Notes under the pieces: model-generated
What the model was told of the DNA's origin: nothing
The model's input: the letters and a program-made list of their open reading frames with translations, nothing else
The model's database searches: none
In this document: positions 16,360 to 47,522 of the stretch, piece after piece
How the letters are laid out: every line of letters starts with the position of its first letter
How positions within the stretch are numbered: the first letter of the stretch is position 1
Translations under genes and position numbers: made by a program
Source: Patescibacteria group bacterium
GTDB taxonomy: Bacteria > Patescibacteriota > WWE3 > 0-14-0-20-40-13
Direction of reading: 5' to 3'
Assembly (NCBI GenBank): GCA_018896215.1
Contig: JAHINB010000013.1
Coordinates: 17,946 to 81,945, forward strand
Length of the DNA: 64,000 bases

Positions 16360-16410
16360 GTTCCCACGCGCAAGCGCGCGGTACTATATTCGTTACAAAA
16401 GTATCCGCAT
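16360..16410. repeat. partial E-family-like element (hairpin + GTTACAAAAG)
   Basis: CACGCGCAAGCGCGCGG hairpin followed by CGTTACAAAAG, the same grammar as TTTCGCGAAGCGAAAGCGTTACAAG in the ribosomal-operon spacers. Followed by two GC hairpins at 16429-16497. Confidence 0.3.
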
Positions 16411-16532
16411 TTGCTGGAGCAAATTAACGCCCCGCCGCAGGCGGGGAATTTATCGGAAGATTCATCCCCGCCCAGAACTGCGTAGCTGTTGGCGGGGTCT
16501 TCTCTAAATCTTGTTATAAAAAATATCTGTCC

Positions 16533-17740: not shown

Positions 17741-17785
17741 AAGTATCTGGCAATATCTGGCAACATCTGGTAACATTAGGCAATG
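17741..17785. repeat. phased 10-bp direct repeats (x4) ending in the Fic ATG
   Basis: GTATCTGGCA-ATATCTGGCA-ACATCTGGTA-ACATTAGGCA-ATG, 10-nt periodicity. Confidence 0.6.
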
Positions 17786-18766
17786 GAAATTCCTCCAAAA
17801 TTCGCGATTAATTCCAAAGTAGCTGACCTAATAGCGTTAATTGACTCCAACCGCCTCTTTATTAATTCCAAAAACATTCCCCCAATCGTACAACAGAATA
17901 TCGACCGCGTTAGTCTTTTAAAAAGTGCTTTATATTCCGCAAAAATTGAGGGCAACGAACTCCAAGAACACAACTTTAATTTTTATCCCAAAGATCAAAA
18001 GAAACTAGAAGTTTTAAACATCCAAAAAGCCATAAATTACATCAATAGCGAGATTACAGGTACAAAACCAGTGATTTTAGAAACTATTCTTACACTGCAA
18101 AAGATATCTATGGAAAACATAGTTCCAAATGCAGGAAAAATTAGAAGCGACAATTTGGCTATTTTTAATTCCGCTGGAGTTGCAGTTTATTTTGCCCCTC
18201 CCCCATCGGAACTTTCTATTTTTTTAGAGAAATTGATAAACTATATAAACTCATCAAGTGCAGAATCACCAATTATTGTTGCCTTAATAGCTCATCTAAT
18301 TCTAGAAAAAATCCACCCCTTTCAAGACGGCAATGGTAGGGTTGGAAGACTCTTAATTTATGCGGTTCTAAAAGCCAAAAGCTACAATTTTGGAGTCCCT
18401 GTTGTGTTAGAAGAAGAAATAAACAAAAGACGAGACGAATATTACTATCACCTAGACCAAGGATACAAAAATGTAGAGGACTATTTGTTTTTTATGCTCG
18501 AAATCTTTTATAACCAAACAGAAACTGTTAAAACCCAGCTAACTTATATTCCACAAGAAAACGATGTGGTTTTGTCTTTGGCGCCAAGGCAAGGAGAAAT
18601 TTACAACATTATTAAAGACCATCAACTGGTATCTCTTGATTTTATTCATAGGAGATTCGTAACAGTTCCAGCAAGAACCCTTCGTTACGATCTAAAGAAA
18701 TTACAAGAAAAGGGTTTGATCAACAAAACATCTTCCACTCGAGGAGCTTTCTACAGAGTTGTCTAA
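17783..18766 (+). CDS. Fic/Doc-family protein (Fido, adenylyltransferase-like)
   Basis: Canonical Fic motif HPFQDGNGRVGRLL. The C-terminus is winged-helix-like. Its stop TAA is the first 3 nt of the boundary palindrome. Confidence 0.8.
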   Translation: MEIPPKFAINSKVADLIALIDSNRLFINSKNIPPIVQQNIDRVSLLKSALYSAKIEGNELQEHNFNFYPKDQKKLEVLNIQKAINYINSEITGTKPVILETILTLQKISMENIVPNAGKIRSDNLAIFNSAGVAVYFAPPPSELSIFLEKLINYINSSSAESPIIVALIAHLILEKIHPFQDGNGRVGRLLIYAVLKAKSYNFGVPVVLEEEINKRRDEYYYHLDQGYKNVEDYLFFMLEIFYNQTETVKTQLTYIPQENDVVLSLAPRQGEIYNIIKDHQLVSLDFIHRRFVTVPARTLRYDLKKLQEKGLINKTSSTRGAFYRVV

Positions 18767-18784: not shown

Positions 18785-18858
18785 ACTACAACAAGATTCA
18801 TGAAATTCCCATCCAAAATTTTTTGCCAAAGGCAAAAGCGTTGCAAGAACTTTAGTTC

Positions 18859-19563
18859 TTATTTTCTCCCAGTTTTAAGTTTTCTTTCGGTTTCGCGGAT
18901 AGCGATTTTGGGCAATACTTCTCGATTTGTATTTATATATTCCACAACCTTTTCCCAATGATGCTTGATAAGACTTCTTAAAATCCACGAAACTGCCTTA
19001 GTAATTAAAATGTCTTTTTCCGATTTTAACTTTTCCAAATTCTCAAAAGCTAGTTTTGCCAGTCGTTCATCATTGCTTTCTCTAACTGACCTAGTAAGCA
19101 ACACCAAACTTGCTCTTCTTCTAGAAATATTTTTATCCCTCGCCATCTTTGTAATTGTCTTTTCCCAAACTGACCAGTCACCCAAAATATCCTCTGCTCC
19201 AAAAGTGCTTTGACACAAACTGTCCACCTCACACCATCCGCTAAGATTTGCAAGCCACTCAAAAACCCTTTTTGGAGTAAAGAGATCTTTAAATTCTTTT
19301 TTTCTGGAAATTAAAGTTGTACCAAATCTCCGTTCGTTGGAGGATTCCCCAACATTAAGAGCGTTCAATAACTCCAAAAATTCTTCTTTCGTGATGTTGG
19401 GATGCTTTTTTACAAATTCTTTAGCAATTTGCTTTTGAACCGCTGTTTTTAGGTGATAAAACTTATTATCGGTTCCGAGATACTTTGGCAAATCAAACTT
19501 TGACGACCCCCTATCCAACCTTTTAAATTCCTCGATGATTTCTTTTTGCAATTTGTTAATCAT
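18859..19563 (-). CDS. DNA alkylation repair protein (AlkD/AlkC-like HEAT-repeat)
   Basis: 234 aa with WCEVDSL, ISRRRASLVLL and KAVSWILRSL, as in the DNA_alkylation family. Confidence 0.5.
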   Translation of the reverse strand: MINKLQKEIIEEFKRLDRGSSKFDLPKYLGTDNKFYHLKTAVQKQIAKEFVKKHPNITKEEFLELLNALNVGESSNERRFGTTLISRKKEFKDLFTPKRVFEWLANLSGWCEVDSLCQSTFGAEDILGDWSVWEKTITKMARDKNISRRRASLVLLTRSVRESNDERLAKLAFENLEKLKSEKDILITKAVSWILRSLIKHHWEKVVEYINTNREVLPKIAIRETERKLKTGRK

Positions 19564-33552: not shown

Positions 33553-33617
33553 AACAAGATTCAAGAAAAAATACTAAAATATTTCGCGAAGCGAAAGCGT
33601 TACAAGCTTCGCTTATA
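33553..33617. repeat. E-family structured intercistronic repeat (infA-rpmJ spacer)
   Basis: AACAAGATTCAAGAAAAAATACTAAAATATTTCGCG-AAGCGAAA-GCGTTACAAGCTTCGCTTATATC. Near-identical to the rplF-rplR spacer copy. Confidence 0.65.
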
Positions 33618-33839
33618 TCATTTGATCCTAAAGACTATCCTCCCCTTGGTAGTATCGTATTTAGTCATTTCTACCCTAACCGTATCACCAGGTAAAATCC
33701 TAATATGATGCAGTCGCATCTTTCCCGAGACATGCGCCAAAATTGGCAACTCGTCCGTTTCAAATTTTACCTTAAACATGGTATTAGGTAGGGATTCCAA
33801 AACCACGCCTTCTCGAACTTCTATATCCTCTTTTTGCAT
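33618..33839 (-). CDS. infA: translation initiation factor IF-1
   Basis: S1-like OB fold ([28 protein letters not shown]). Start at the internal Met (MQKEDIEV). Confidence 0.85.
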
Positions 33840-33888
33840 AAATAAATACAACCCCATAAAGGGCTCTGGGTATTAAAACAAAAAAAAC

Positions 33889-34668
33889 CTATCTAGTCAA
33901 TATCCTATAACCGTTCTCCGTTACTGCAACCATATCCTCTAACATTGCTGACAACTTACCGTCCTTTGTTTTAACTGTCCAGCCGTCACGAGAAACGGCA
34001 AGCTCTGGAGAGCCTGCTACATACATTACTTCTACACACAAAACCATTCCGCAAACAAGCGATACTCCAGAACTACATCTGCCAAAGCAAGGAATTTGTG
34101 GGTCTTCATGAAGCTCTTTTCCAATAGCGTGACCAGTAAGATCGCGAATAACATTATAGCCTGCTCTTTCGATAGTATTTTGGATTGTACAAGAAATATC
34201 TCCTACAAAATTTCCGGGTACAATAGCATTTATTGCTCTATCTAAAGCCAGCTGACCTATCTGCAAAAACTTTTTAGTTGCGGGATTTGGTTCCTGCCCT
34301 ACTACAATAGTCCGACACATGTCCGATTTCCAACCGCCAAATAAGGCGCCCATATCTAAAGATAATAGATCGCCTTTTTTAACCTTTCTTCCGCCCGGCA
34401 TTCCATGAACAACTTCATCGTTGATGCTAATGCAGGTAGAAAACTTGTAACCACCTTCACCAAGGAACGATGATTTGGCATGAAGCGATTTAAGTTGCGA
34501 AGAAACAAACTTGTCAATATTGGCTGTTTTAAGACCAGGGTGAATCCAACCTAAGGTTCTTTCCATCACCTTCTTGGCAATTTGGGCAGTAAGATAGATT
34601 TCTTCGATTTCTTGAGGGGTTTTAATGATTACCATAAGATTTAATTTTGTCGGATATTTGACGGGCAA
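33889..34668 (-). CDS. map: methionine aminopeptidase type I
   Basis: Metal-binding D/H/E pattern of pita-bread fold (HGMPG, DMGALFGGWKSDMCRT, HEDP). Confidence 0.85.
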   Translation of the reverse strand: MPVKYPTKLNLMVIIKTPQEIEEIYLTAQIAKKVMERTLGWIHPGLKTANIDKFVSSQLKSLHAKSSFLGEGGYKFSTCISINDEVVHGMPGGRKVKKGDLLSLDMGALFGGWKSDMCRTIVVGQEPNPATKKFLQIGQLALDRAINAIVPGNFVGDISCTIQNTIERAGYNVIRDLTGHAIGKELHEDPQIPCFGRCSSGVSLVCGMVLCVEVMYVAGSPELAVSRDGWTVKTKDGKLSAMLEDMVAVTENGYRILTR

Positions 34669-35161
34669 TTTCTTCTACGCTGGGACTTCCATCAACCTCA
34701 AGTAATTTGTTTTGCTTTCTAAAAAAATCCAACACTGGTTCGGTTAGTTGGTGATAAACCAAAAGCCGTTCTTTGATGATCTCCGGCGTGTCGTCACCTC
34801 GTCCCCGTTCGTTTAACCTTTTGATGCATTCTTCGTCGGTTAATTTGATATAAATAGCAAGATCAATGGGAGTTGAGGAATGTTCGGCTTGATACAAATC
34901 TCTTGGGGCGCCGTCCAAGGCAAAACCTTTGTCTTTTAGCTTAGAAAGATGTAAATCTATAATCTCAACCGCATCTTGATTATTTACTAAATGACCCCGA
35001 TCCATGGCGGTTTCGACTCGCGCACCAAGCGGGGTGTTATCTTGCTTTAGTTTTCTAAAAATATCACCAGTAGAAAGGTGCAAAACTCCAAGACTTTTGG
35101 CTAAAATCTCGGCTTGAGTAGACTTACCACTCCCCGGCATTCCCATAATAACTATATTCAT
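34622..35161 (-). CDS. adk: adenylate kinase (short form)
   Basis: P-loop GMPGSGKSTQAE and an NMP-binding region. 179 aa. Confidence 0.8.
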   Translation of the reverse strand: MNIVIMGMPGSGKSTQAEILAKSLGVLHLSTGDIFRKLKQDNTPLGARVETAMDRGHLVNNQDAVEIIDLHLSKLKDKGFALDGAPRDLYQAEHSSTPIDLAIYIKLTDEECIKRLNERGRGDDTPEIIKERLLVYHQLTEPVLDFFRKQNKLLEVDGSPSVEEIARQISDKIKSYGNH

Positions 35162-35220
35162 GAGTTGATTTTACCTCACAAACCGCTATTTACGAAACGG
35201 TATTTGCGCACCTATCAATT

Positions 35221-35249
35221 CGGGTACTACCCGAATCGGGTAGTACCCG
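35221..35249. repeat. perfect 29-nt palindrome
   Basis: CGGGTACTACCCGA-A-TCGGGTAGTACCCG, within the GC-rich insert between adk and the ybaB-like gene. Confidence 0.6.
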
Positions 35250-35454
35250 ATAATATCTTGCCACTAAAGGGTTCTTTTGAATACAGTGTTTCGTGTTGTT
35301 ATAGCAAGGAAAATTTACTATCAATTGCAACTGGATGCAGATGGAGTGGGGCACCTCTTAAACAACAAAAAGAAAAAGAAAAGGCGCTGGAGTCTCTCAT
35401 GATACATCAAGAGAAAATACCCCCAGCACCTTCCGCAACTTCCCCCCCACCGCA

Positions 35455-35818
35455 TCACTTGTTGGCATCGATACAATCGGAGAGGCTCTGCAAGAATGCC
35501 TTGGCGGATACATCGCCATATGGAAAACCCACGACATCGTATACGATGCGATGCCCCCCCCCCGATTTCAGCACGAAACACGGTACGCCACTCGTTAAGA
35601 CTCCCCATTCCTACCCGCAGAAAGATCACTCTGCGCCGTTTATCTTGTACAGCATGAGAGTAAGCTTCCACAGCCAAATGCAAGTGTCTGGGGTACAACA
35701 TAACGAGAACGATGTCGGCAGGTTCACCAATCTCATAATCATGAGCAAGGAGCAATTGCTCAATGATCCTGCGACCCTCGGGAACAAAGTCCTCGAACAG
35801 AAACAGTTTCTGCTTCAT
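35455..35818 (-). pseudogene. small GC-rich gene with strong Shine-Dalgarno, interrupted at a C10/G10 homopolymer (frameshift or phase-variable tract)
   Basis: AAAGGAGGAATCC then ATG at 35816-35818 (minus) opens a clean 85-codon frame (MKQKLFLFEDFVPEGRRIIEQLLLAHDYEIGEPADIVLVMLYPRHLHLAVEAY...RAEIGGG). It reaches ten consecutive C (35554-35563). The actual frame continues as R/C-rich low-plausibility sequence, whereas the -1 frame reads HRIVYDVVGFPYGDVSAKAFLQSLSDCIDANK then a stop. Confidence 0.4.
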
Positions 35819-35899
35819 GGATTCCTCCTTTGTGAGATTCCTCACTGATTTGTAGAGATTCGAGGGGGTAAGTGAGGTTATTATAACACAAAAAGCGAT

Positions 35900-36166
35900 T
35901 TAAAACCCAAAATCTCCCATTTGACCTTGCATTTTGTGGGCGACCTTTTTTTGGGCTTCTTTAACCGCTTTATTAAAAGCCTCCTTGAGACGCACATCCA
36001 ACTCGCCATCTACCCAAACCTCTTGCACATGATTATCTCCCTGCATCACGACTTTGATTCCTTTCTCCTCCACCTCAACAACAATCGCTTCCATTTGCTT
36101 CTTCATCTCATCAGCCTTCTTTTTCATCTCATAAAGTTTTTTTACATTGCCAAATGGTAGTGCCAT
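35900..36166 (-). CDS. YbaB/EbfC-family nucleoid-associated protein
   Basis: 88 aa, KE-rich helical protein with a C-terminal MQGQMGDFGF tail. Confidence 0.6.
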   Translation of the reverse strand: MALPFGNVKKLYEMKKKADEMKKQMEAIVVEVEEKGIKVVMQGDNHVQEVWVDGELDVRLKEAFNKAVKEAQKKVAHKMQGQMGDFGF

Positions 36167-36187
36167 GTTTTAATAATTAAAAACTCA

Positions 36188-37474
36188 CTAAATAATCTTA
36201 GCATCGTAATCGCGCATGATAAGTTGCGATTGGAGTGATTTTACCGTTTCTAATACCACAGATACAACAATTAAAATTCCTGCCCCCCCAACGGTAAGAG
36301 TGGCAATACCCGTGATGCTTTGAGCTACATTCGGCAGTACCGCAACTAACCCTAAAAACAATGCCCCAACCAAAGTGATTCTGGTTACCACCCGATTTAG
36401 ATAATCGGATGTTGGCTTTCCGGGCCTAATTCCTGGGATAAACCCACCCTGTTTTTTTAAGTTGTCTGCCACATCTTCGGGGTTAAAAGCTACCGCAGTG
36501 TAAAAATAGGTAAACGCAAAAACCAAAATAAAATAAAAAGCATTATATATCCAGCCCCCCATTTTAAAATAAACCGTAAGCACTCTGCCGATTTCCGCCA
36601 ATTGCGGACTCTTTGCCGAAACGAGAACATTGCCAAGAAAAGAAGGCAGTAACACTAAAGAGACCGCAAAGATGATGGGAATCATTCCCGCCATATTAAC
36701 TCGCAAAGGCAAAAAATTACTCCCCCCGCCATAAATTCGTCCCCCGCGCAACCTTTTGGCATATTGAACTTGAACATTTCGCGTCGCCTCATTGACAAAA
36801 ACCACGGCAGCAACAACGCCGATTGCCAAAGTAAAAATAATCGCAATATTTGTTATACCTTGTGAGCTTACTGTGGCAAGAGTTTGCCCAAAGGATCGCG
36901 GAAGCTTGGCCACAATTCCCGAGAAAATTATGATCGAAATGCCATTGCCAATCCCATATTCCGAAATTAATTCTCCCAACCACATTAAAAGGACACTCCC
37001 CCCTGTCATGGCAACAACCAAACGCAAAACATCGGCAGGTGACAAATTTCCAATAATCCCCTGTTTAGAAAGCAAAATAAACATTCCGTAAGATTGCATA
37101 GCGCACATGGGAATAGCAATAATTCTGGTGTACTGATTTATTTTTATTCTGCCAAATTCGCCCTCTTTGCTCATTTCTTCCAATTTTGGAAAAACCTTAG
37201 TAAAAAGTTGCATAATAATAGAGGCGTTAATATAGGGACCAAGACCTAAAGTAACCAACGAAAAGTTTTCCATACCACCACCAGTAAAGACATTTAAAAA
37301 GCCTAAAATTTGGCTAGAATTAAATAAATTTTGCAAGGCGGTAATATTTGCCCCCGGAATTGGAATATGAGCTAAAAAACGAAATACAAAAAGAATTCCA
37401 AAAGTAAAAAGGATTTTTCTTTTAAGATCTTTTTCACTAAATAAATCGCTAAATATCTTTAAGACCGAATTCAT
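36188..37474 (-). CDS. secY: preprotein translocase subunit SecY
   Basis: 428 aa with 10 TM helices and conserved SecY plug/hinge motifs. Confidence 0.95.
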   Translation of the reverse strand: MNSVLKIFSDLFSEKDLKRKILFTFGILFVFRFLAHIPIPGANITALQNLFNSSQILGFLNVFTGGGMENFSLVTLGLGPYINASIIMQLFTKVFPKLEEMSKEGEFGRIKINQYTRIIAIPMCAMQSYGMFILLSKQGIIGNLSPADVLRLVVAMTGGSVLLMWLGELISEYGIGNGISIIIFSGIVAKLPRSFGQTLATVSSQGITNIAIIFTLAIGVVAAVVFVNEATRNVQVQYAKRLRGGRIYGGGSNFLPLRVNMAGMIPIIFAVSLVLLPSFLGNVLVSAKSPQLAEIGRVLTVYFKMGGWIYNAFYFILVFAFTYFYTAVAFNPEDVADNLKKQGGFIPGIRPGKPTSDYLNRVVTRITLVGALFLGLVAVLPNVAQSITGIATLTVGGAGILIVVSVVLETVKSLQSQLIMRDYDAKII

Positions 37475-37917
37475 GTGGCAGTTCCTCCAGCTTTAGTAAT
37501 TTTAGCAAGTGCCGATTTAGAATACAAAAACCCCCTAAAGTTAAGCTTTTCGGAAAATTCCCCATCTCCTAAAATCTTGGGCTTAAAGTATTTATTAGCC
37601 CGAATAACACTTTTTTTTACCAGCGTACTGGGAGTTATGGTTTCTCCCGCCTTAAAGCCTTTTAAACTTTTGAGATTTATTGTGGTAACTTTTTTAGATA
37701 CCGGAGAGTTGCCTTTTCCTCTTTTTTGGGGCATGCGCTTAATAATTGCTATTTGCCCACCTTCGAAAAAAGACGGGATATTATGCCCCGATCTTGCCTT
37801 TTGTCCTTTGTTTCCCCGTCCCGATGTATGTCCCCCCTTTCCTGAACCAATTCCCCTCCCCACCCTTTTAGCACTTCTCCTGCTACCTTTTAATTTTGGT
37901 AAGTTGCTTAAATTCAT
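37471..37917 (-). CDS. rplO: 50S ribosomal protein L15
   Basis: Gly/Arg-rich N-terminus RGIGSGKGGHTSGRGNKGQKARSG. Directly follows rpsE with no rpmD (L30) gene between them. Confidence 0.85.
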   Translation of the reverse strand: MNLSNLPKLKGSRRSAKRVGRGIGSGKGGHTSGRGNKGQKARSGHNIPSFFEGGQIAIIKRMPQKRGKGNSPVSKKVTTINLKSLKGFKAGETITPSTLVKKSVIRANKYFKPKILGDGEFSEKLNFRGFLYSKSALAKITKAGGTAT

Positions 37918-38405
37918 ACTCTTTGTGATTTAAGGCTTTTTAAAGCCTTAATAACGGCATAAACATTGTTTAACTTGTTGTTTGAGCCAAGCATTTTTGA
38001 CGAAACATTTTTAATACCCGCAACCTCCAACACTTTGCGTACAGCTCCCCCAGCAATAATTCCCGCGCCGTCTGGAGCCGGCTTAATAAATACCTGACAG
38101 GCGCTGTATTTTGCCCAAACTTCATGAGGAATTGTTCCTTGACGAACCGGCACTGTAAACATTTTTCTTCTAGCACCACTGGTAGCTTTGGCAATAGCAG
38201 ACGCGGTATCACCCGCTTTTCCCAAAGAAATCCCAATTGATCCTTCTTTGTTCCCTACAACTGCTAAAACCGAAAAGGCAATTTTATTACCACCCTTGGT
38301 TTTTTTAGCTACCCTTTTTATTTCGATAATTTTTTCTTCAAAACTGTCCTTTGGGGTTCTTGCGCCATAAGCGTTTTTTCTTGTTCTTTCGTTTTGTTTT
38401 TGCAT
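37914..38405 (-). CDS. rpsE: 30S ribosomal protein S5
   Basis: S5 dsRBD-like core. Confidence 0.9.
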   Translation of the reverse strand: MQKQNERTRKNAYGARTPKDSFEEKIIEIKRVAKKTKGGNKIAFSVLAVVGNKEGSIGISLGKAGDTASAIAKATSGARRKMFTVPVRQGTIPHEVWAKYSACQVFIKPAPDGAGIIAGGAVRKVLEVAGIKNVSSKMLGSNNKLNNVYAVIKALKSLKSQRV

Positions 38406-38409
38406 AATA

Positions 38410-38757
38410 CTAGAAAACTAATTTATTTTCCCTCGCCCCTTCGGCAACCGCTTTTACTCTACCATGATACTTATAACCCGAACGATCAAAAACCACTTTC
38501 TTAATCTTGGCATCAAGCGCTTTTTTTGCTACAGCTTTACCTACTTCGTAAGCCCTTTTGGTCTTTTTAGTTTTTGCATCCATCTTTAGATCGGAGCTTG
38601 CAACCAAAGTTACACCTTTTTCATCGTTTACTATTTGAGCATAAATATGCTTATGGGACCTAAAAACGCTTAGTCTAGGTCGTTCTTTGGTTCCTACTAC
38701 TTTTGCTCTAATTTTAGCTTTTATCCTCTCGCGAGGGCTTTTGTGTGTCACTTTCAT
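38410..38757 (-). CDS. rplR: 50S ribosomal protein L18
   Basis: [21 protein letters not shown]. Confidence 0.85.
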
Positions 38758-38909
38758 ATATTTATATACAAGCTTCGCTTATAACAAGATTTAAGAACAA
38801 ATACTAAAATGTTTCGCGTCAGCGAAAGCGTTACAAGCTCTGCTTATAGCGAAAGCGTTACAAGCTCTGCTTATAGCGAAAGCGTTACAAGCTCTGCTTA
38901 TAATGATCT
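38758..38909. repeat. E-family intercistronic repeat region (rplF-rplR spacer) including the tandem array
   Basis: CAAGCTTCGCTTATAACAAGATTTAAGAACAAATACTAAAATGTTTCGCGTC, then 3x27-bp units, then AATGATCTC. Confidence 0.7.
38821..38901. repeat. perfect tandem repeat, 3 x 27 bp (AGCGAAAGCGTTACAAGCTCTGCTTAT)
   Basis: Three identical contiguous units read directly from the sequence. Non-coding, between rplF stop and rplR start. Confidence 0.9.
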
Positions 38910-39464
38910 CTAAGTTTTACCGGACGCCCCGGCTTTTCCGGCTTTACCAGCTTTTCTTCTGATAATTTCTCCTTGGTACTTAATTCCTTTGCCTTTGTAA
39001 GGCTCTGGCTTTCTAACTTTTCTAATTAACGCGCTAAACTGCCCTACTTGTTGCTTATCACAACCGCTAACTTTAATCTTAACATCGTCAGAAACTTCTA
39101 CCTTTAACCCTTGGGGAATTTCCATTTTTACCGGATGAGAATACCCAACTGTTAAAACAAGTGTGTTGCCTTCTATTTTTGACCTAAAGCCAACTCCCGA
39201 GAGCTCTAACTTACGAAAAAACCCGTTAGAGACCCCCGTAACCATATTGGCAATTAATGCCCGCTCCAACCCCCAGTAGGCATTTTCCGTTTCTCCATCC
39301 TTTAGATAAACCTCAATTTCATTTTTATTGATCTTTAAACCCACCTCGGGTCGAACAACCCTTGTTAGGGTACCACTAGATCCCACAACTGTCACTAAAT
39401 CGCCAACGCAGGTTACTGTTACCCCCGCAGGAATATCAATTGGCATTTTGCCTATTTTACTCAT
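38910..39464 (-). CDS. rplF: 50S ribosomal protein L6
   Basis: Two-domain L6 (SKIGKMPIDIPAGVTV...). Confidence 0.9.
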   Translation of the reverse strand: MSKIGKMPIDIPAGVTVTCVGDLVTVVGSSGTLTRVVRPEVGLKINKNEIEVYLKDGETENAYWGLERALIANMVTGVSNGFFRKLELSGVGFRSKIEGNTLVLTVGYSHPVKMEIPQGLKVEVSDDVKIKVSGCDKQQVGQFSALIRKVRKPEPYKGKGIKYQGEIIRRKAGKAGKAGASGKT

Positions 39465-39469
39465 AGTAA

Positions 39470-39877
39470 TTAGTAAACCTCACAAATAACTTCTCCACCC
39501 AAAGCCTTTTTTCGAGATTCCTGACCTGTTAATACTCCTCTAGGTGTTGATATAATTTGAACACCCATACCATTTCTAATCTTTTTAATATCCTTAGATT
39601 TAATATATTTCCTTAAGCTAGGCTTAGAAATAATTTTTAAATGCGACATAATTGGCTCTCCACTCTCCCCAAACGCCACTTCTATATGCAACCTTTTAAA
39701 AGATTCTCCAGAATTCTTAAATGACTTAACAGAAGCTACAAAACCACAAGTTTTTAAGGCCTGCGCTACCGACTCCGCTAACTTTGAATAGGGAGCCTCA
39801 AAAGACTCGTTTTTTGCCATAACAGTGTTTTTAAGTTGGGACAAAAAATCTACAATCATATTAGTTTCGTTTAGCAA
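39470..39877 (-). CDS. rpsH: 30S ribosomal protein S8
   Basis: S8 pattern with C-terminal GGEVICEVY. Confidence 0.85.
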
Positions 39878-40043
39878 CTCCTGGTAATTCTCCTGCCATT
39901 GCCATTTCTCTAAAACAAATTCGGCAAATTCCGTATTTTCTAATAAACCCGTTCACTCTGCCACAAAACTGACATCTATTGTAAGCTCTTACGGCAAATT
40001 TAGGTGTTTTTTTGTGTTTTAAAATTAGCGCTTTTTTAGGCAT
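39861..40043 (-). CDS. rpsZ: 30S ribosomal protein S14 type Z (zinc-binding)
   Basis: 60 aa, [10 protein letters not shown]...CRICFRE Cys4. Confidence 0.85.
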
Positions 40044-40620
40044 TTTTTATGGGTTTTAACTCTTTTTTAAACGGCATACCCAAAGCCTTAAGCAATAAGT
40101 AACCGTCGGAATCGTTAGAAGCCGTTGTTGTTATAACAACCTGAAGGCTTTTTATCTTTTCGATTTTATTAGAGTCTATAGTTGGAAAAACCAAATGCTC
40201 TCTAAAACCTATAGAACAATTTCCGTGACCATCAAAAGACTTTTTAGAAATTCCTCTAAAATCGCGAACCCGTGGCAACACTACACAGACTAAATTCTGG
40301 AAAAAATCCCACATTTTGACTCCTCGTAGTGTAACACATACCCCAACATCCTCCCCCTTCCTCAATTTAAAACTGGCAATAGACTTTTTGCTTTTTGTAA
40401 CTTGCGGTTTTTGCCCTGTTATCTGCTCCAAATCACGAATGCAAGACTCTTTATATTGTTTATCGTCCTTAAACCTTCCAATTCCCATATTTACAGTGAT
40501 CTTTCCCAAAGTTGGAACAGCGTGAACATTACCTTTTTCAAGCTTTTTAAGTAAATCTTTTTTTATTTCTTTTTCAAATTTTTCTTGTAATGTATTCATG
40601 GCATTATAACTTCCTTGCAT
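40036..40620 (-). CDS. rplE: 50S ribosomal protein L5
   Basis: L5 core. Confidence 0.9.
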
Positions 40621-40907
40621 TTACCACACTTGCGGTATTTTTTTCCCGCCACAATCGAAAATCCAACTCGCGTGGGCTTTTTACATTTGGGACAAACTAA
40701 CATAACTTTAGACACTGCTATAGGCATTTCTTTGGAAATGATCCCTCCTTTAACATTTCTCCCCGAACTTTTTGTATGTCTCTTTACCACATGAACTCCT
40801 TTGACTACAATTTTAGAACTTGCCGTAATCACTCTTTCGACAACAGATTCCTTGCCTTTTTCTTTTCCTGATAAAATTTTAACCGTATCTCCTTTTCGTA
40901 TTTTCAT
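40596..40907 (-). CDS. rplX: 50S ribosomal protein L24 (KOW) with C-terminal CxxC...CxxC
   Basis: N-terminal KOW (KIRKGDTVKILSGKEKGK) and a C-terminal CPKCKKPTRV...CGKCKEV. Confidence 0.85.
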   Translation of the reverse strand: MKIRKGDTVKILSGKEKGKESVVERVITASSKIVVKGVHVVKRHTKSSGRNVKGGIISKEMPIAVSKVMLVCPKCKKPTRVGFSIVAGKKYRKCGKCKEVIMP

Positions 40908-40917
40908 GCTATGTTAA

Positions 40918-41286
40918 CTACCAAACTTCTGTTGCTAATGACACGATTTTGGAAAATCCGGCATCTCTTAATTCTCTTGCTACAGGACCAAAAACTCTTG
41001 TACCCAACGGCAGTTTGTCCGCGCCAACAACACAAGCCGCGTTATCATCAAATCTAATATGTGACCCATCTTTACGTCGCTGTTCCTTTCTACACCTCAC
41101 GACTACAGCCTTTACAACCGAGTGGTCCTTTACAATACCTGTTGACGAAGCCCCCTTTACAACACAGGTTACAATGTTTCCCAATAGAGCAAACCTTCTT
41201 CTGGAATTCCCAGGAATACCAATAATAAGCAACCCCTGTGCCCCACTGTTATCCGCAAGTTTTAGTCTTGATCCAACTTGAACCAT
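40918..41286 (-). CDS. rplN: 50S ribosomal protein L14
   Basis: [17 protein letters not shown]. Confidence 0.9.
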
Positions 41287-41290
41287 AGAA

Positions 41291-41521
41291 TTAATTTATC
41301 TTAGTAACTACCCAATTCTTAAAGCAACTTAGCGGTCTTGATTCTTCTATAGTCACAAAATCTCCTAACTTGGCGCCAACTTCGTTATGCGCTTTAAACC
41401 TTCGGGTATTGCGGATCTCTTTGCCATACATGGGATCTTTTCTTGGCATCTCTACAGCTACAATTGCAGTTTTCTGCATCTTGTCCGAAACTATTTTTCC
41501 TACAAATGTCTTTTTAGGCAT
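41291..41521 (-). CDS. rpsQ: 30S ribosomal protein S17
   Basis: OB fold ([19 protein letters not shown]). Confidence 0.85.
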
Positions 41522-41532
41522 AATGACAAATC

Positions 41533-41733
41533 CTAACTTTGAATAATCTCTTTTTCTCTTAAAATTGTCTTAATTCGCGCTATTTGCTTTCTAATTTTGG
41601 CAATTTTTGCGACCTCTTTAAGCTTTCCCAAAGAGTGGCTCAATTTAGCATCTATTATTTCTTTCTGCAACAACTTAAAGTCTGCGAGCAACAATTCTTT
41701 GGTTTTATCACGAAGCTTTGATATTGATTCCAT
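41533..41733 (-). CDS. rpmC: 50S ribosomal protein L29
   Basis: 66-aa helical hairpin in the expected rplP-rpmC-rpsQ order. Confidence 0.8.
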   Translation of the reverse strand: MESISKLRDKTKELLLADFKLLQKEIIDAKLSHSLGKLKEVAKIAKIRKQIARIKTILREKEIIQS

Positions 41734-41738
41734 GGTAT

Positions 41739-42146
41739 TTAATCTGCTTGAACAAACCCTGTTTTAATCGGTAATTTATGCGAGGCGCGATCAAACGCTT
41801 CTCGAGCTACTGCCTCGGTAACACCAGACAGCTCAAACATTATTTTTCCCGGTCGAGTTCTGCAGGAAAAATGGTCTGCCAAGCCTTTCCCGCCACCCAT
41901 TCTTGTTTCGGCAGGCTTTTTTGTTACAGGATTATCGGGAAATACTCTAATCCAAAGCTTTCCGCTTCTTTTAGTAAAATGCGTAATGGCTTTTCTGGCA
42001 GCCTCTATTTGCCGCGATGTAATATAGCCACGATCCATGGCTTTAAGACCAAACTCTCCAAAATCAACATTAGAACCGCGATTACTCAATCCCGCGATTG
42101 TGCCTCTTTGGGTCCTTCTAAATTTCATTCTCTTTGGCATTAACAT
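41739..42146 (-). CDS. rplP: 50S ribosomal protein L16
   Basis: [15 protein letters not shown]. Confidence 0.9.
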
Positions 42147-42153
42147 AAAAAAA

Positions 42154-42795
42154 TTACTTGATGTTTTCGTACTCGCCTCGATAAATCCAAACTTTTATTC
42201 CAATGCTTCCATATGCTGGCATTGCTTCTACCCGGGCAAAATCTATATCAGCTCGCAAGGTTTGGGTGGGAACTGTTCCACGAGAAAATTTCTCGTTGCG
42301 TCCAATACTGGAAGCGCCACTTAAAAGACCCGAGACTTCTATTTTAATACCCAAAACCCTTGCCTCCTGCGCTTTTTGCAAAGCCGAGTTTACCGCTCTT
42401 TTATAAGGAATTCGTTTTTCTATTTGATCCGCAATAGCTCGGGCTGTAAGATAAGCGGATTTTTCGATCTCTTTAATTTCCTCAACCACCAAATCTACTT
42501 TTTCCGGCGTTAATTTTTTTAACTCCTCTCGTAAAAGCGCGATTCCCGCCCCACCTTTTCCAATAACTACCCCAGGACGAGAAATAGCCACAACTATTTT
42601 AATGTTTCCAAAGGAGCGCTCAATGACAACTTGAGAAATTCCTGCCCCAGAAAGCCTTTTCATTAAAAACCTTCTAATTTTTTGATCTTCTAAAACATAC
42701 GCAGGCAACACTTTTTTGTCTTGAGTAAACCAAATAGATTGCCAATTTTTGTAGACCCCGTAACGGAAACCGTTAGGATTTGTTTTTTGTCCCAT
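42154..42795 (-). CDS. rpsC: 30S ribosomal protein S3
   Basis: [16 protein letters not shown] domain. Confidence 0.9.
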
Positions 42796-43141
42796 TTTCG
42801 TCAGAAACTGAAAGAGATAATTTAATATTTGTGGTTCTTTTTAAAATTGGGCGGGCGGTTCCCTTGGAACCAGCTCTAATTCTTTTAAGCGTTGTCCCTT
42901 TTCCCACCATAATTTCGGATAAAAACATCTCATCGCTTTCAAGACCTCTGCTCTTTGCTGACGCTACTGCCGATTTGATTAGATTAGCAACCGGTCTGGC
43001 TGATCTTTTGACCGTAAAAGCAAGCCGTCTTCGCGCCTCCATGACTGTGCACCCCCTCACAAGATCGCAAACCAAAGCGACTTTTCTTGGCGTTATTCTT
43101 AAATTATTTAATTTTGCAACAACCTGTTGTTTTTTTTCCAT
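42773..43141 (-). CDS. rplV: 50S ribosomal protein L22
   Basis: L22 core. Confidence 0.85.
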   Translation of the reverse strand: MEKKQQVVAKLNNLRITPRKVALVCDLVRGCTVMEARRRLAFTVKRSARPVANLIKSAVASAKSRGLESDEMFLSEIMVGKGTTLKRIRAGSKGTARPILKRTTNIKLSLSVSDENGTKNKS

Positions 43142-43167
43142 AATCCTTAGACGCTTTCTATAGCTAT

Positions 43168-43515
43168 CTATTTTGCTCCCGCTTTAGGTGACGGCTTTGG
43201 CGCAGTTGGAGAAATACCCTCCGGTGCTCTCTTGGCAGAACTTTCTTTTTTAAGACCTTTTCTGCTGTGAGTTCTAAAGGTCCTGGTTAAAGAAAACTCC
43301 CCTAACTTGTGCCCAACCATAGACTCGGTGACAAACACCCCAATAAAGGTTTTTCCGTTATGTACTTCGAAATTTAACCCCACCATCTCGGGACTTATGG
43401 TAGATCTTCTACTCCATGTTTTTATAGCCCCACGATTTAATGTAGCTTTCGCTTTTTTTACTTTTTCTTGCAATTTTGGGTCAATGTAGGGACCCTTTTT
43501 TTGTGATCTGCTCAT
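43168..43515 (-). CDS. rpsS: 30S ribosomal protein S19
   Basis: Start taken at the ATG ([15 protein letters not shown], cf. the canonical S19 N-terminus). The longer TTG-initiated ORF runs into the upstream repeat element. Confidence 0.85.
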
Positions 43516-43604
43516 ATCTATAACAAGATTCAAGAAAACTTCCTATTAATATCCCCGATGGATATCGGGGGCGTTACATATTTCCACGCTTCCCGCGTGG
43601 AAAT
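43516..43604. repeat. E-family structured intercistronic repeat (rplB-rpsS spacer)
   Basis: ATCTATAACAAGATTCAAGAAAACTTCCTATTAATA, then hairpin CCCCGAT-gga-TATCGGGG, then GCGTTACATA, then hairpin TTTCCACGC-ttcc-GCGTGGAAA, then TCTATTTCC. Confidence 0.7.
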
Positions 43605-44426
43605 CTATTTCCTTTCAACAATAAATTTATCGGTATGAGTTCTTTTTCTAGTTTTAAACCCTTTAGCAGGTTGTCCCCAAGGACTTACCGGAGACGCTCT
43701 TCCAACCCCCGATGTTTTGTAACTGCCCCCATGTGGATGAGATCTAGGACTACCATAGGCTACACCTCTTACCTTAGAGCGCCGTCCCAAGTATTTCTTT
43801 ATTCCCGCTTTACCTAGGCTAATATTTTTAACATCTTCGTTGTCCAAAACACCAAAAGATCCGCTACAGTTTCCAAAAATCTTTTTTACCTCACCACTCG
43901 GAAGCTTGATATTAACATATTTCCCCTCTTTTGCGGTAATGGTTGCAAAATTCCCTGCTCCTCTAGCCATTTCTCCACCTTTTCCAACATGTAGCTCTAC
44001 GCAATTAATATACGATCCAACCGGCATTAAATTTAAGGGGCAGGAATTTCCAGGGTTTTGATCAACAGCCTGCTTCGACGAAACAACGGTATCCCCAACT
44101 TTAAGTTCTTTGGGTCTTAAAATATAGCGCCGTTCACCATCAGCATATAAAATTAAAGCTATAGAACTGCCTCTATTGGGATCGTACTCTATTTGCTCAA
44201 CTTTAGCCAAAATGTCGTATTTATCCCTTTTAAAATCTATCTTGCGATAGGCCTTTTTAGCACCCGCAGATCTGTGGCGCATTGAAACCCTACCACGAGA
44301 TCTAGCAGTAGATCCACGACTGCCAACAACCAAAGACTTTACTCTTGCAAGCTTTTGGTTTTTTCGCCTTAAACTAATTTTTCCCCTTTGACCTGGGGTT
44401 GTGGGTTTGTATCTTTTTAATGCCAT
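43605..44426 (-). CDS. rplB: 50S ribosomal protein L2
   Basis: 273-aa L2 (GRNNRGRITVRHRGGGHKR-like motifs). Confidence 0.95.
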   Translation of the reverse strand: MALKRYKPTTPGQRGKISLRRKNQKLARVKSLVVGSRGSTARSRGRVSMRHRSAGAKKAYRKIDFKRDKYDILAKVEQIEYDPNRGSSIALILYADGERRYILRPKELKVGDTVVSSKQAVDQNPGNSCPLNLMPVGSYINCVELHVGKGGEMARGAGNFATITAKEGKYVNIKLPSGEVKKIFGNCSGSFGVLDNEDVKNISLGKAGIKKYLGRRSKVRGVAYGSPRSHPHGGSYKTSGVGRASPVSPWGQPAKGFKTRKRTHTDKFIVERK

Positions 44427-44428
44427 AG

Positions 44429-44758
44429 TTAACTTGTCTTCTTAACCTTCTTAGCCTTTCCTAATTTCTTCTCCACAACTTCAAATAAATCGATTTTCTG
44501 ACCCGTTGCTAATTTAGCGAAGGCTTTTTTATACTCTTTGGTTTTATAAGACATTCTAGCCTTTGTTAAACTTCTTTTTGTTTTGCTCTTTGTTTTTAAA
44601 GTATTCAACCTCGTAACCTTAACCTTAAAGTGCTGCTCTATTTGATCAATAATCGCCCCTTTTGACGCCTCTTTAACAACTGCAAAGGAATAAATGCCTT
44701 TTTTTACCAAGTGGGTAGTTTTTTCTGTGATTATAGGTCTAATTATTATTTGTTGCAT
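44429..44758 (-). CDS. rplW: 50S ribosomal protein L23
   Basis: L23 core, position between rplD and rplB. Confidence 0.8.
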   Translation of the reverse strand: MQQIIIRPIITEKTTHLVKKGIYSFAVVKEASKGAIIDQIEQHFKVKVTRLNTLKTKSKTKRSLTKARMSYKTKEYKKAFAKLATGQKIDLFEVVEKKLGKAKKVKKTS

Positions 44759-45381
44759 AGTTCTGAAATAACCTCTTTTTCTAAAACAGTCAGCGCCACG
44801 GAAGATAACTCAAAAGCGTTAATTGCTCTGGAGTCGCAAACACTAACCTGCGAAAGATTTCTAAACGATCTTAAAACTTTAAATCTTTCGGCAACTTCCT
44901 TTTTGGCAGAAATTACTAAAAGAGCTTTTTTATCTATTTTTAAATTGTTTAAAATACCTATGGCATCTTTTGTTTTTAGCTTGTCCATATCTAATCTATC
45001 CAAAACTAAAATACTTTTAGTCTGCAAGGCGCAAGAAAGGGCTGATACAAGCGCTCCCCTCTTTTGAGCTTTATTTAAAGAGAGTCTTTTTGTGTAAGGA
45101 ACAGGTCCGTGAGATATTCCACCGCCTACCCAAACTGGAGACCTAGATGACCCAGCCCGCGCCCTACCCGTATGTTTTTGGTTCCAAGGCTTTTTTCCGC
45201 CACCAGAGACTTGAGACCTTGTTTTGGTCTTGTGTGTTCCTTGGCTTTGATTAGCTTGATACATTCTAATGTACTGCGCTATTAGATCCAGATTTGGAGT
45301 AACACCAAAAACCTCTTTGGGAAGAGTTATTTTTTCAACTTCTTGGCCTTCTTTATTTAAGACGCTTACCTTTAAACTCAT
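44746..45381 (-). CDS. rplD: 50S ribosomal protein L4
   Basis: L4 core. Confidence 0.85.
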   Translation of the reverse strand: MSLKVSVLNKEGQEVEKITLPKEVFGVTPNLDLIAQYIRMYQANQSQGTHKTKTRSQVSGGGKKPWNQKHTGRARAGSSRSPVWVGGGISHGPVPYTKRLSLNKAQKRGALVSALSCALQTKSILVLDRLDMDKLKTKDAIGILNNLKIDKKALLVISAKKEVAERFKVLRSFRNLSQVSVCDSRAINAFELSSVALTVLEKEVISELCNK

Positions 45382-45809
45382 GTTAGTATTTCAACTTGCA
45401 CCTTTGACCGCCTTGCTCCTGGCACCCCACCTAAAACTTTGATTTCGAGTTTTTCTTTTTCTAGACCAACAATCTTGGATCCCGGTACTGTAATGCTAGC
45501 ATTTCCAAAGTGCCCCGGCATTTTGAGACCTTTAAAAACTCTTCCAGGGGTGGAAGGACCAGTAGAACCAATTGCCCTTTGCCTGTCCGACTGACCATGG
45601 GTAGCAGGACCTCCCTTATGCCCCCACCTCTTCATCACACCAGAAAAACCACGCCCTTTTGAAACTCCTTTTAGCTTTATTTTTTGACCAATGGCAAGCT
45701 CTTTTTCCGGCCAGACAGAAAGTACCACTGTTGTAAAAGGAACGACATCTCCATTTTCTAAATATAATAAACCCATGTCTTTTTTTGTTCCTAAAAGTTT
45801 TGTTTCCAT
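45378..45809 (-). CDS. rplC: 50S ribosomal protein L3 (short form, ~143 aa)
   Basis: The N-terminus aligns with canonical L3 (METKLLGTKKDMGLLY vs MIGLVGKKVGMTRIF). The C-terminal half GFSGVMKRWGHKGGPATHGQS...GGVPGARRSKVQVE is present, but ~60 residues of the canonical internal region are missing. Confidence 0.8.
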   Translation of the reverse strand: METKLLGTKKDMGLLYLENGDVVPFTTVVLSVWPEKELAIGQKIKLKGVSKGRGFSGVMKRWGHKGGPATHGQSDRQRAIGSTGPSTPGRVFKGLKMPGHFGNASITVPGSKIVGLEKEKLEIKVLGGVPGARRSKVQVEILT

Positions 45810-45905
45810 ATCTTATAACAAGATTCAAGAATAATTCCTATTAATTTCCTCGCCCACGGCGAGGGCGTTACATAGTTGCACGAGCTTGCTCGTGGAAATC
45901 TATGT
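45810..45905. repeat. E-family structured intercistronic repeat (rpsJ-rplC spacer)
   Basis: ATCTTATAACAAGATTCAAGAATAATTCCTATTAATTTCC, then hairpin CTCGCC-cacg-GGCGAGG, then GCGTTACATAG, then hairpin CACGAGC-tt-GCTCGTG, then GAAATCTATG. Confidence 0.7.
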
Positions 45906-45924
45906 TTGGTGCAGGGTGGGATAG

Positions 45925-46233
45925 TTAGGCCTTTATTTCTATTCCTACTCCCGAGGGCAAATTTAAATGTGACAACTGATCCATGGTACTTGGAGTTGGA
46001 TTGTCAATATCAATAATTCTTACATGCGTTCTGACTTCAAAGTGCTCGCGAGATCTAGAATCAATATGCGGACCGCGCAGAACCGTAATGACTTCTTTTT
46101 TGCAAGGAAGCGGAACGGGACCCGAGACTCTAGCGCCAGTCCTTATGGCGCAATCTACAATTTTTGCAGCGCTTTGATCAACCACTCTGCTATCATATGA
46201 CTTTAATTTTACCCTAATCCTTCCTTTAGACAT
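45925..46233 (-). CDS. rpsJ: 30S ribosomal protein S10
   Basis: [14 protein letters not shown]. Confidence 0.9.
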
Positions 46234-46328
46234 ACGACATCACAACAAGATTTAAGAAAACATCCAAATAATTTCCCCCGACGAATGTCGGGGGCGTTGC
46301 AAGCTTTTTCGCGTAATCGCGAAAAGGG
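46234..46328. repeat. E-family structured intercistronic repeat (tuf-rpsJ spacer)
   Basis: ACGACATCACAACAAGATTTAAGAAAACATCCAAATAATTTCC, then hairpin CCCGAC-gaat-GTCGGGG, then GCGTTGCAAG, then hairpin TTTTTCGCG-taat-CGCGAAAAG. Confidence 0.7.
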
Positions 46329-47522
46329 TTATTTAATTACCTTCGAGACAACTCCTGCTCCAACCGTTTGACCACCTTCGCGAATAGCAAATCGCATTCC
46401 CTCTTCCATAGCAACTGGAGTAATCAGCTTAATGCTTAATTTTACATCATCACCTGGCATTGCCATCTCTGTCCCTGCGGGCAAATCGGCTTCTCCAGTA
46501 ACATCTGTGGTTCTAATATAGAATTGTGGCTTGTATCCGCTAAAAAACGGGGTGTGTCTGCCACCCTCTTCTTTAGAAAGAACATAGACGCTGGCCTCAA
46601 ACTCGGTGTGAGGGGTAATTGATCCTGGCTTTGCCAAGACCTGACCTCTTTCTACTCCATCTCGCTCAATTCCTCTTAAAAGGATCCCTACATTATCCCC
46701 GGCCTGCCCCTCGGGAAGAGATTTCTTAAACATCTCAATTCCAGTAACAACCGTCTTGGAGGTTGGTTTAATTCCAATTATTTCTACTTCCTCGTTAATT
46801 TTAACAACACCCCTGTCGATTTTTCCTGTAACCACTGTTCCACGACCCTTGATGCTAAACACATCCTCTATCGGCATTAAAAAGGGCTTGTCCAAATCTC
46901 TCTTTGGAGTTGGAATAAACTCATCAACCGCTTTCATTAAGTCTTCGATAGCTTTAATGGACGCGGGATCGCCTTCCAACGCTTTTAGAGCGGAACCTCT
47001 GATAATTGGAGTAGTGTCCCCCGGATACTCAAACTTTTTGAGCATATCTCTAAGCTCCATTTCGACTAAATCGCACATTTCATTCTTTTCGGCGTCGGTT
47101 CCAGGCAGAGCGTCGACTTTATTTAAAAATACGACCAGGGATGGAACATTAACTTGACGCGCTAAAAGAACATGTTCTCTTGTTTGAGGCATAGCTCCAT
47201 CGGTTGCCGCAACAACAAGAATAGCGCCGTCCATTTGGGCAGCTCCGGTAATCATGTTTTTAATGTAATCTCGATGCCCCGGAGCATCTATGTGGGCATA
47301 GTGACGAGCTTCGGTTTCGTACTCAACATGAGTAATGTTGATTGTAATACCACGAGCCTTCTCTTCTGGGGCTTTGTCAATTTGATCGTAAGCATAAAAT
47401 TGAGACAAACCCTTAGAAGCGAGTACCTTAGTAATTGCCGCAGTAAGTGTGGTTTTACCATGGTCTACATGACCTATGGTTCCAATATTTACATGAGGCT
47501 TAGTTCTGATGAATTCTGCCAT
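46329..47522 (-). CDS. tuf: elongation factor Tu
   Basis: [19 protein letters not shown] motifs. 397 aa. Confidence 0.95.

Follow-up and report, generated by a model that had tools for sequence, protein, structure and literature searches.

Small structured repeats, probably a mobile element family, in the intercistronic spacers of the ribosomal protein superoperon of a WWE3 bacterium

Patescibacteria have streamlined genomes of ~1 Mb, and few gene arrays in bacteria are as constrained as the S10-spc-alpha superoperon. The stretch of DNA analysed here (i.e. 64,000 nt of contig JAHINB010000013.1 from a groundwater Patescibacteria group bacterium of the WWE3 lineage, hereafter the window) carries this locus in the order tuf, S10, spc, alpha, with the L30 gene missing between those for S5 and L15. 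A related module of 64–121 nt was found in five of its spacers (i.e. infA-rpmJ, rplF-rplR, rplB-rpsS, rpsJ-rplC and tuf-rpsJ) and again before an ArsR-like gene in the suf leader. The locus raises the question of whether the module is a working part of the operon or DNA that has invaded it. The evidence assembled below favours, with a probability of about 0.6, a lineage-restricted family of non-coding, non-autonomous, selfish mobile elements that is possibly directed by a single-strand guide, as in IS200/IS605, and carried passively in the operon mRNA.

The first-pass annotation had proposed that the modules in these five spacers and in the suf leader are related, and this proposal was borne out by exact matches to a shared box at all six sites, by paired hairpins and by recovery of held-out copies with a covariance model (CM). 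The box, AACAAGATTNAAGAA, occurs without mismatch on the + strand at 11176, 33553, 38783, 43522, 45817 and 46244, and with one mismatch at 18790. When up to two mismatches were allowed, 12 matches were obtained as compared to 1.6 expected, a number reached in 0/100 shuffles. Each box is followed 29–36 nt later on the + strand by GCGTTRCA, with a hairpin on either side. Eight copies were identified in the window, comprising the six sites named above, a further copy (c18k in Table 1) and an inverted, interrupted copy (c16k). A 'degenerate copy' had earlier been noted at ~16360-16410; a copy does lie there, but it is a full one in the opposite orientation with internal insertions. A CM built from copies of the 'TTTCGC' type alone recovered every held-out copy of the 'CCCCGA' type with E ≤ 4e-8, indicating that the copies form one family and that their similarity is not low-complexity A/T bias. 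Copies with GC stems had fold z-scores of -3.4 to -4.8. Together with at least six other sites, the copies in the window give ~14 distinct sites in all.

The elements are dispersed and non-coding, contain 57–77% A+T and have two hairpins. On the gene-sense (minus) strand they read, in order, ATAR, hairpin 2, the linker TGTAACGC (consensus TRTAACGC), hairpin 1, an A/U-rich stretch and TTCTTNAATCTTGTT. The distance from the left end to hairpin 2 is 0–5 nt, and that from hairpin 1 to the right end is 30–37 nt. The stems of hairpin 1 are CCCCGAC, CCCCGAT, CCTCGCC, CCCCGCC, TTTCGC, TTTCGCC or TTTTGCC, and two sequence types can be told apart, one with a CCCCGAY-like hairpin 1 followed by AAUUAAUAGGA and the other with a UUUCGC-like hairpin 1 followed by AUUUUAGUAU. 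Tandem repetition of the left unit (i.e. ATAR, hairpin 2 and linker) can occur, and different copies combine left and right units in different ways. Within the operon the element takes up the whole spacer, its left end overlapping the stop codons of tuf and rplB; the right end abuts the ATG of rpmJ and that of the ArsR-like gene. In most copies the sense-strand linker (e.g. 43571-43580 and 11227-11236) is UAUGUAACGC, an AUG followed by UAA that constitutes a minimal start-stop open reading frame (ORF); the variants are AUG-UAG in a copy outside the window (L020b) and UUG-UAA in other copies.

Mobility was indicated by variation among strains. Many contigs from metagenomes and metagenome-assembled genomes (MAGs) match the window with 99–100% identity across most of the shared sequence and therefore represent strains of one species. 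The rpsJ-rplC element is present in the window, L001 and L008 and absent from L002-L007, L009 and L010, whose overlaps are >99% identical; the element-free allele, seen in eight strain contigs, has a 30-nt spacer in otherwise near-identical flanks. At tuf-rpsJ, four strain contigs (L004, L007, L009 and L017) have a 63-nt spacer in place of the element. This spacer contains a 9-bp GC-rich hairpin resembling an intrinsic terminator, a T6 run and a GGAGG Shine-Dalgarno sequence (SD) 6 nt before the ATG. As the terminator-type spacer is homologous to that of a WWE3 relative (see below), the element-bearing allele is the derived one, and the S10 operon of the window strain, which lacks the terminator, is presumably read through from tuf. 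In L009, the allele of window positions 46234-46328 lies at 2601-2664 and consists of the terminator CTGGGGTGC-TATA-GGCACCCCAG plus T6 and the GGAGG SD. The rplF-rplR element has one, two or three 27-nt sub-units depending on the strain, with spacers of 73–152 nt. By comparison, the rplB-rpsS copy is identical across 12 strain contigs and the copy before the ArsR-like gene is present in 4/4 strains examined. Short contigs start or end inside copies (i.e. assembly breaks), as is expected of repeats.

Orthologous sites in relatives were empty. The closest named relative is a WWE3 bacterium (WWE3 CG08) with an L6 protein 62% identical to that of the window; its spacers at the five sites are 51, 20, 6, 11 and 8 nt, those of rplB-rpsS and infA-rpmJ being 6 and 8 nt, and none contains the element. 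In a sister species (L6 75% identical), for which rplF-rplR was the only spacer examined, this spacer is 10 nt and empty. The earlier premise that ribosomal protein (r-protein) genes are normally a few nucleotides apart was thus sound, and the comparison with sister genomes that had been suggested as a check found short, empty spacers in two relatives at the sites examined. The WWE3 relative has a copy of its own between rplN and rplX, in which the left unit of 45 nt is duplicated and the box abuts the rplX ATG. No locus shares a copy between the window species and either relative (L026/L027, L028), and a third relative from the candidate phyla radiation (CPR; 57% identical) yielded no copy. 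The simplest account is that the family is old in the WWE3 lineage and is still turning over.

Copies were also detected away from the operon. A metagenome scan returned nine loci, among which L019 and L024 were chance matches. L020, L021 and L023 derive from one metagenome that also holds the species, and L025 from a second. L020 contains two complete copies and one truncated copy, and the other three loci one each. The contexts of these copies are 45 nt upstream of a CofE-like gene, divergent intergenic, 120 nt upstream of a NUDIX gene and, for L025, upstream of rpmE in antisense orientation. Copy L020a overlaps the 3' end of the same CofE-like gene and encodes its last 11 residues and stop, such that the protein ends in ...MRGIDSHLVLLGENM as compared to ...MRGII in a 90% identical homologue. 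The UAA in the linker of L020a is the stop actually used by this gene. L020b and L020c have a common hairpin 2 and the rare linker TGTAGCGC but a different hairpin 1, whereas L020a and L020b have a common hairpin 1 but a different hairpin 2; the modules therefore recombine. Beside L020a, positions 4500-4780 form a GC-richer and possibly structured stretch. The L020 region 4500-5940 contains an insertion sequence (IS) with an IS256/Mutator-type transposase (4787..5761, - strand) and the inverted repeats GCTCGAGGGTAGCGTTCA / TGAACGCTACCGGGCTCGAGC. This IS was rejected as an autonomous partner because its inverted repeats are unrelated to the ends of the element.

Further searches gave no related sequences. 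No CM of Rfam 15 matched at the gathering score, and at E ≤ 10 the only match beneath a copy was nse_sRNA with 24.9 bits as against a cut-off of 75 bits. An exact-pattern scan of 185,579 species genomes, a collection that evidently lacks MAGs of this species, gave one chance match in a Bacteroidetes coding region (L016). A scan of viral contigs gave 13 matches, all of them chance and devoid of the hairpins, and no phage link. The 10 kb that adjoin the window on its left contain no further copy, and a search of the literature for CPR repeats of a comparable kind found none.

The ends of the element follow a rule. The three bases after the terminal CTTGTT are RTR at 14/14 sites (ATA 8, ATG 4, GTG 1 and GTA 1), and no sequence pattern was observed in the left flank. 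These three bases are host DNA, since at four sites they form a conserved start codon shared with the orthologue, namely that of rpmJ, of rplR in L010/L015, of rplX in the WWE3 relative and of the ArsR gene. When the flanks of c46k (ATT AA|G TGA), c43k (AGG AA|A TAG) and c18k (AGA AA|G TAG) were joined in silico, a stop codon reappeared in frame and in its place, and for c46k also the ATTAAGTGA of the element-free allele; the A-TAA or A-TAG of the inserted element replaces the upstream stop codon. The rplR junction (L010/L015 versus the sister species) is consistent with simple insertion. Terminal inverted repeats (TIRs) were sought in 12 copies by local alignment of the first 25 nt with the reverse-complemented last 25 nt; scores of 4–6 were within the range of shuffles, and only ATA (left) and TAT (right) are shared between the ends.

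The copies are also oriented. Seven of the eight copies in the window lie on one strand, and the GC skew is monotonic across the window. In tests that were made post hoc, 12/14 copies were sense to local transcription (p = 0.013) and 5/8 window copies lay in the operon, although only ~15% of native intergenic DNA in the 39 kb with annotation belongs to it (p = 0.003).

The right junction can pair with the interior of the element. In silico, every copy allows the linker TGTAAC, situated 2 nt upstream of hairpin 1, to pair with GTT|RTR, i.e. the linker (U)GUAAC pairs with GUU and the next three bases across the right junction. In a model-based alignment, hairpin 1 (five pairs counted) and this second helix were paired in 100% of cells with compensatory changes, and the covariation score exceeded all 500 shuffles and all slid controls; two of the aligned sequences are weak and probably false matches, and the copies are mutually related, so that these numbers overstate independence. 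The telling changes in the helix are those of c46k and c18k (C-G in place of U-A), the WWE3 copy (A-U in place of G.U) and L020b (G.U in place of A-U). The base at flank position +1 was A in 12/12 copies with a TGT linker and G in 2/2 copies with a TGC linker (Fisher 1/91 = 0.011). The helix requires G.U (G.T) pairs that are present on the sense strand only. Fold energies favoured neither strand overall (7/13, p = 0.74).

These features suggest how the copies may have come to fill the spacers. Insertion would be a simple, strand-specific integration without duplication, the target being chosen by pairing of the internal linker TGTAAC with the junction GTT|RTR according to the logic of HUH/Y1 systems (i.e. 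IS200/IS605 and REP/RAYT), and the mobilising enzyme would be supplied in trans. By analogy, the element may work like an HUH/Y1 single-strand element, and membership of that class is not claimed. RTR would cover ATG and GTG as well as any codon-final base that is followed by the TA or TG of a stop. Given such a target and an element that starts with A-TAA or A-TAG, insertion at a cistron junction would leave both neighbouring frames intact. With native spacers of 0–10 nt, junctions would be nearly the only tolerated sites, and copies would consequently fill spacers and abut start codons. The position of the box close to start codons can be ascribed to the insertion rule (i.e. immediately 5' of RTR) combined with very short native spacers. 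The enrichment may owe something to strong operon transcription as well.

A more far-reaching version of this scheme, which we advance only tentatively and would not yet bet on, is that the family represents a new type of guide-directed single-strand mobile element. Its 6-nt guide, TGTAAC, adjoining a hairpin foot, would pair simultaneously with the GTT that ends the element and with the first three target bases (RTR) and would be programmable (TGT for ATR, TGC for GTR). The termini (A-TAA/TAG ... ^ATG) would have evolved for stop/start junctions in the operon with the highest expression in a minimal genome, leaving both genes unbroken. If true, the base-pair-directed targeting of IS200/IS605 would be extended to a new small element in a new phylum.

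Table 1. Copies of the element and a related fragment in the window
Feature	Position	Strand	Length (nt)	Spacer	CM E-value	Remarks
c11k	11176..11257	-	82		2.9e-9	
c16k	16356..16515	+				Opposite orientation to other seven; nhmmer partial matches
c18k	18790..18862	-	73		4e-14	Linker TGCAAC
c33k	33553..33616	-	64	infA-rpmJ	5e-19	
c38k	38783..38901	-		rplF-rplR		Three tandem 27-nt left sub-units
Fragment	38758..38782	-	25			Sense ATAAGCGAAGCTTGTATATAAATAT; resembles left end of second copy
c43k	43522..43608	-	87	rplB-rpsS	4e-8	
c45k	45817..45903	-	87	rpsJ-rplC	1e-11	Polymorphic
c46k	46244..46332	-	89	tuf-rpsJ	6e-9	Linker TGCAAC

The individual copies (Table 1) illustrate the fit to gene junctions. 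The A-TAA at the left end of c46k is the stop codon of tuf, while the ATAG of c43k includes that of rplB (43607-43605) and the rpsS ATG (43515-43513) is 6 nt past CTTGTT. c33k spans from 1 nt past the infA TGA to the rpmJ ATG. The right end of c11k (CTTGTT) directly abuts the ATG (11175-11173) of an 87-aa ArsR-family gene (Pfam HTH_5) upstream of sufC/sufB. The sub-units of c38k start at 38821, 38848 and 38875, the unit being AGCGAAAGCGTTACAAGCTCTGCTTAT on the + strand, and the 25-nt fragment is lodged between the c38k box and the rplR ATG; strains L010 and L015 lack the fragment, and their box directly adjoins the ATG. Two copies lack such a relationship to a start codon. c18k lies between the 3' ends of convergent genes for DNA-alkylation repair (18859..19563, -) and Fic (17783..18766, +), its A-TAA being the stop codon of the upstream gene and no start codon following it. 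c16k is located between two minus-strand genes and is antisense to both; it reads ATAG, hairpin 2, an insertion of ~45 nt, TAACGC, hairpin 1 (CCCGCC/GGCGGG), an extra 35-nt hairpin and the box CTTCTCTAAATCTTGTT, and was missed by the CM because of its insertions.

The main alternative is that the module is a selected cis-acting mRNA element (e.g. an SD-independent start, a helix masking start codons, an RNase or stabilising site, or an attenuator) that spread by mobility and was retained for its function. We judge this to be unlikely. The box and linker are nearly invariant whilst the hairpin stems vary with compensation, as would suit a functional RNA, but no orthologous copy is held by either relative and no Rfam family matches. 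Enrichment in the r-protein operon is strong and all six operon copies (five in the window and one in the WWE3 relative) are sense, yet other copies are antisense or have no downstream start, and at rpsJ-rplC and tuf-rpsJ presence is polymorphic within the species, so that neither state is essential. The linker helix takes in the AUG of rpmJ, the ArsR gene, rplR (L010) and rplX and has G.U pairs on the sense strand only; fold stability, in contrast, does not differ between strands. The 3' part of the element is A/U-rich and unstructured and resembles other SD-less starts in the operon. However, most genes of the operon are SD-less near the start with or without an element, as they also are in the WWE3 relative, and at tuf-rpsJ the element replaced a spacer that carried the GGAGG SD. 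A specific role in SD compensation was therefore rejected, and the suggestion of the first-pass annotation that the module serves translation initiation or processing in place of absent SDs is not supported, orthologous copies not having been kept. An influence on expression is a different matter, as co-transcribed BIME, ERIC, Correia and BOX repeats do change it (PMC3049150). Insertion places 64–152 nt of structured RNA between cistrons formerly 0–10 nt apart, and the downstream genes must consequently initiate independently from the A/U-rich box, an SD-less context like that from which most genes of the operon would start. By analogy with such repeats, a secondary effect on the mRNA is possible for the mobile element favoured here.

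The same note had also offered a selfish, MITE-like repeat (miniature inverted-repeat transposable element). The selfish and mobile part of this suggestion agrees with insertion and absence among strains, variation of the sub-units, empty spacers in sister genomes, occurrence in both orientations, a copy in the 3' end of a gene and breaks in assemblies. The strict MITE part does not, given that there is no TIR and no demonstrable target-site duplication (TSD). A classical MITE or site-specific cassette, whose ends (ATAR ... CTTGTTAT) are recognised by a DDE transposase or recombinase with duplication of 2–3 bp (AT, TA or ATR), is accordingly thought quite improbable. The elements are small, AT-rich and highly base-paired as in the definition of MITEs (PMC3049150), but the inverted repeat ATA/TAT does not extend beyond 3 nt. 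AT or ATR is found on both sides of most copies; duplication of either was rejected because the left is always ATA whereas the right also varies to ATG, GTG or GTA (6/14 sites), such that the two are not duplicates. A TA duplication as in IS630 or Correia would, with one single-nucleotide polymorphism, fit the lengths of the filled and empty rpsJ-rplC alleles, but was rejected as it leaves rplB without a stop before the c43k insertion. The only nearby IS, of the IS256/Mutator type, has unrelated ends. Integron attC sites (R''/R' = TGTAAC/GTTATR) were likewise considered and rejected, because a single long imperfect hairpin is missing, GTTAT misfits GTTRRRY and r-protein genes are not cassettes. 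Least probable is a tiny + strand gene in which a promoter (ATAACA-N18-TAWWAT) drives an RNA of ~55 nt (i.e. hairpin 1, GCGUUACA and hairpin 2 as terminator) antisense to the junctions. ATAACA/TAAAAT with 18-nt spacing was flagged on the + strand at 33551 and 38781, but promoter matches overall were at chance level (35 found versus 39 expected, sense or antisense), and neither the -10-like hexamer nor the spacing is conserved (18–20 nt; poor in c46k and L023). Hairpin 2 with a T-rich tail resembles a + strand terminator at 43580 and 46304, although the tail depends on the flank. The hairpin 2 stems of c46k and L020a have G.U pairs only on the + strand, but the 15-nt box, the most conserved part of the element, would fall outside such an RNA.

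Several observations weigh against a guide-directed mobile element as well. A successful selfish repeat would be expected at more than the ~14 distinct sites recovered, and the 15-nt box is strongly conserved across a split as deep as that from the WWE3 relative, which could reflect a cellular function. The ends of IS200/IS605 elements within one genome normally share hairpin features, whereas the hairpin stems differ strongly from copy to copy here and those of hairpin 2 are unrelated among copies. In the ~95 kb of the lineage that was read, no HUH/Y1-type transposase and no full-length IS with matching ends were found, the IS256/Mutator-type enzyme of L020 being the only transposase, and the gene tables of the fetched loci list no TnpA/RAYT domain. 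The geometry is unlike that of IS608, in that the paired site is 30–37 nt 3' of the hairpin and the helix spans the junction; moreover, the specified flank follows the 3' end of the element on the G-rich strand, a polarity opposite to that of IS608. The covariation between linker and flank comes from two copies (c46k and c18k) of one subfamily, both with TTGGATG. Finally, the rpsJ-rplC empty site, the sole one available, shows 2 nt of difference from the sequence predicted before insertion, as from every simple model, and insertion without duplication or loss is therefore inferred.

A mobile origin of the family would mean that even the S10-spc-alpha locus is open to mobile DNA whose ends imitate the contexts of stop and start codons. 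The rpsJ-rplC and tuf-rpsJ junctions provide natural alleles with and without the element for studying the translation of SD-less, uncoupled r-protein cistrons. The repeats also have a practical consequence, as they break metagenome assemblies in an operon whose marker genes serve for the phylogeny and binning of CPR bacteria.

Other features were observed in the window. A second small repeat, TTGTCTAAGGGTCAGACCCTAAAACA, comprising a 13-nt palindrome (AGGGTCAGACCCT) with conserved flanks, occurs at 12423-12448, 15213-15238, 15857-15882 and 18759-18784. These repeats are intergenic or at gene ends, one being 5 nt from the right end of c18k and another directly before a 10-nt tandem array. Such arrays (ATCTGGCAAT/ACATCTGGCAA) are present at 15879-15922 and 17730-17783, i.e. 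1.8 kb apart and intergenic, adjoin a PNPOx-like gene and the Fic gene and resemble operators or iterons. Positions 12026-12262, 12496-13002 and 11338-11808 encode a 78-aa stand-alone GIY-YIG nuclease-domain protein, an NYN-domain protein and an unannotated 156-aa protein, respectively; this cluster surrounds tRNA-Pro just upstream of c11k, and no link to the repeat was found. Inside the superoperon (spc/alpha region), a variable insert of ~740 nt without a Pfam match lies between ybaB and adk (35100-36190), and its gene calls vary from strain to strain, with a product of 188 aa from one strand, of 174 aa or 120 aa from the opposite strand, or no gene at all. Upstream of fusA (47618-49822, -), an island at 50000-56650 has a G+C content of 0.53–0.56 as compared to ~0.40 elsewhere and contains four contiguous + strand ORFs of 437, 668, 485 and 405 aa, one with SLT transglycosylase and M23 peptidase domains and the other three with no Pfam match. 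This island was probably acquired horizontally.

Among the known systems that come closest are the ends of IS200/IS605 elements with their non-autonomous derivatives, and REP/BIME with RAYT. In IS608, guides 5' of the hairpin feet read the cleavage and target sites, TIRs and TSDs are lacking and insertion proceeds without gain or loss of sequence (PMC3201880); this IS prefers the lagging-strand template and has hot spots in highly transcribed rrn operons (PMC5027513). The family described here is similarly devoid of TIRs and of evident duplication, with asymmetric ends, hairpins near both ends, a specified sequence on one flank, a hairpin-foot sequence able to pair with the junction, a strand bias and a preference for highly transcribed DNA. 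It differs from both in its variable stems, in the distance of the paired site from the hairpin (30–37 nt rather than 10 or 19) and in a 6-bp helix that crosses from the end into the flank. In build, the family is like BOX of Streptococcus pneumoniae (boxA-boxB(n)-boxC), being modular with a number of tandem units that varies by strain; BOX is also intergenic and co-transcribed, forms stem-loops and can alter gene ends (PMC3049150). Unlike BOX, the present element belongs to another phylum, repeats its left end rather than a central unit, has a lower apparent copy number and is placed strictly 5' of RTR at cistron junctions. Correia of Neisseria, ERIC and RUP are likewise small, structured, strain-polymorphic and located within operons, where repeats of this type have documented effects on mRNA processing and expression (PMC3049150, PMC2649163). 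They are set apart from the WWE3 family by long TIRs or long palindromes and, in Correia and RUP, by duplication of TA.

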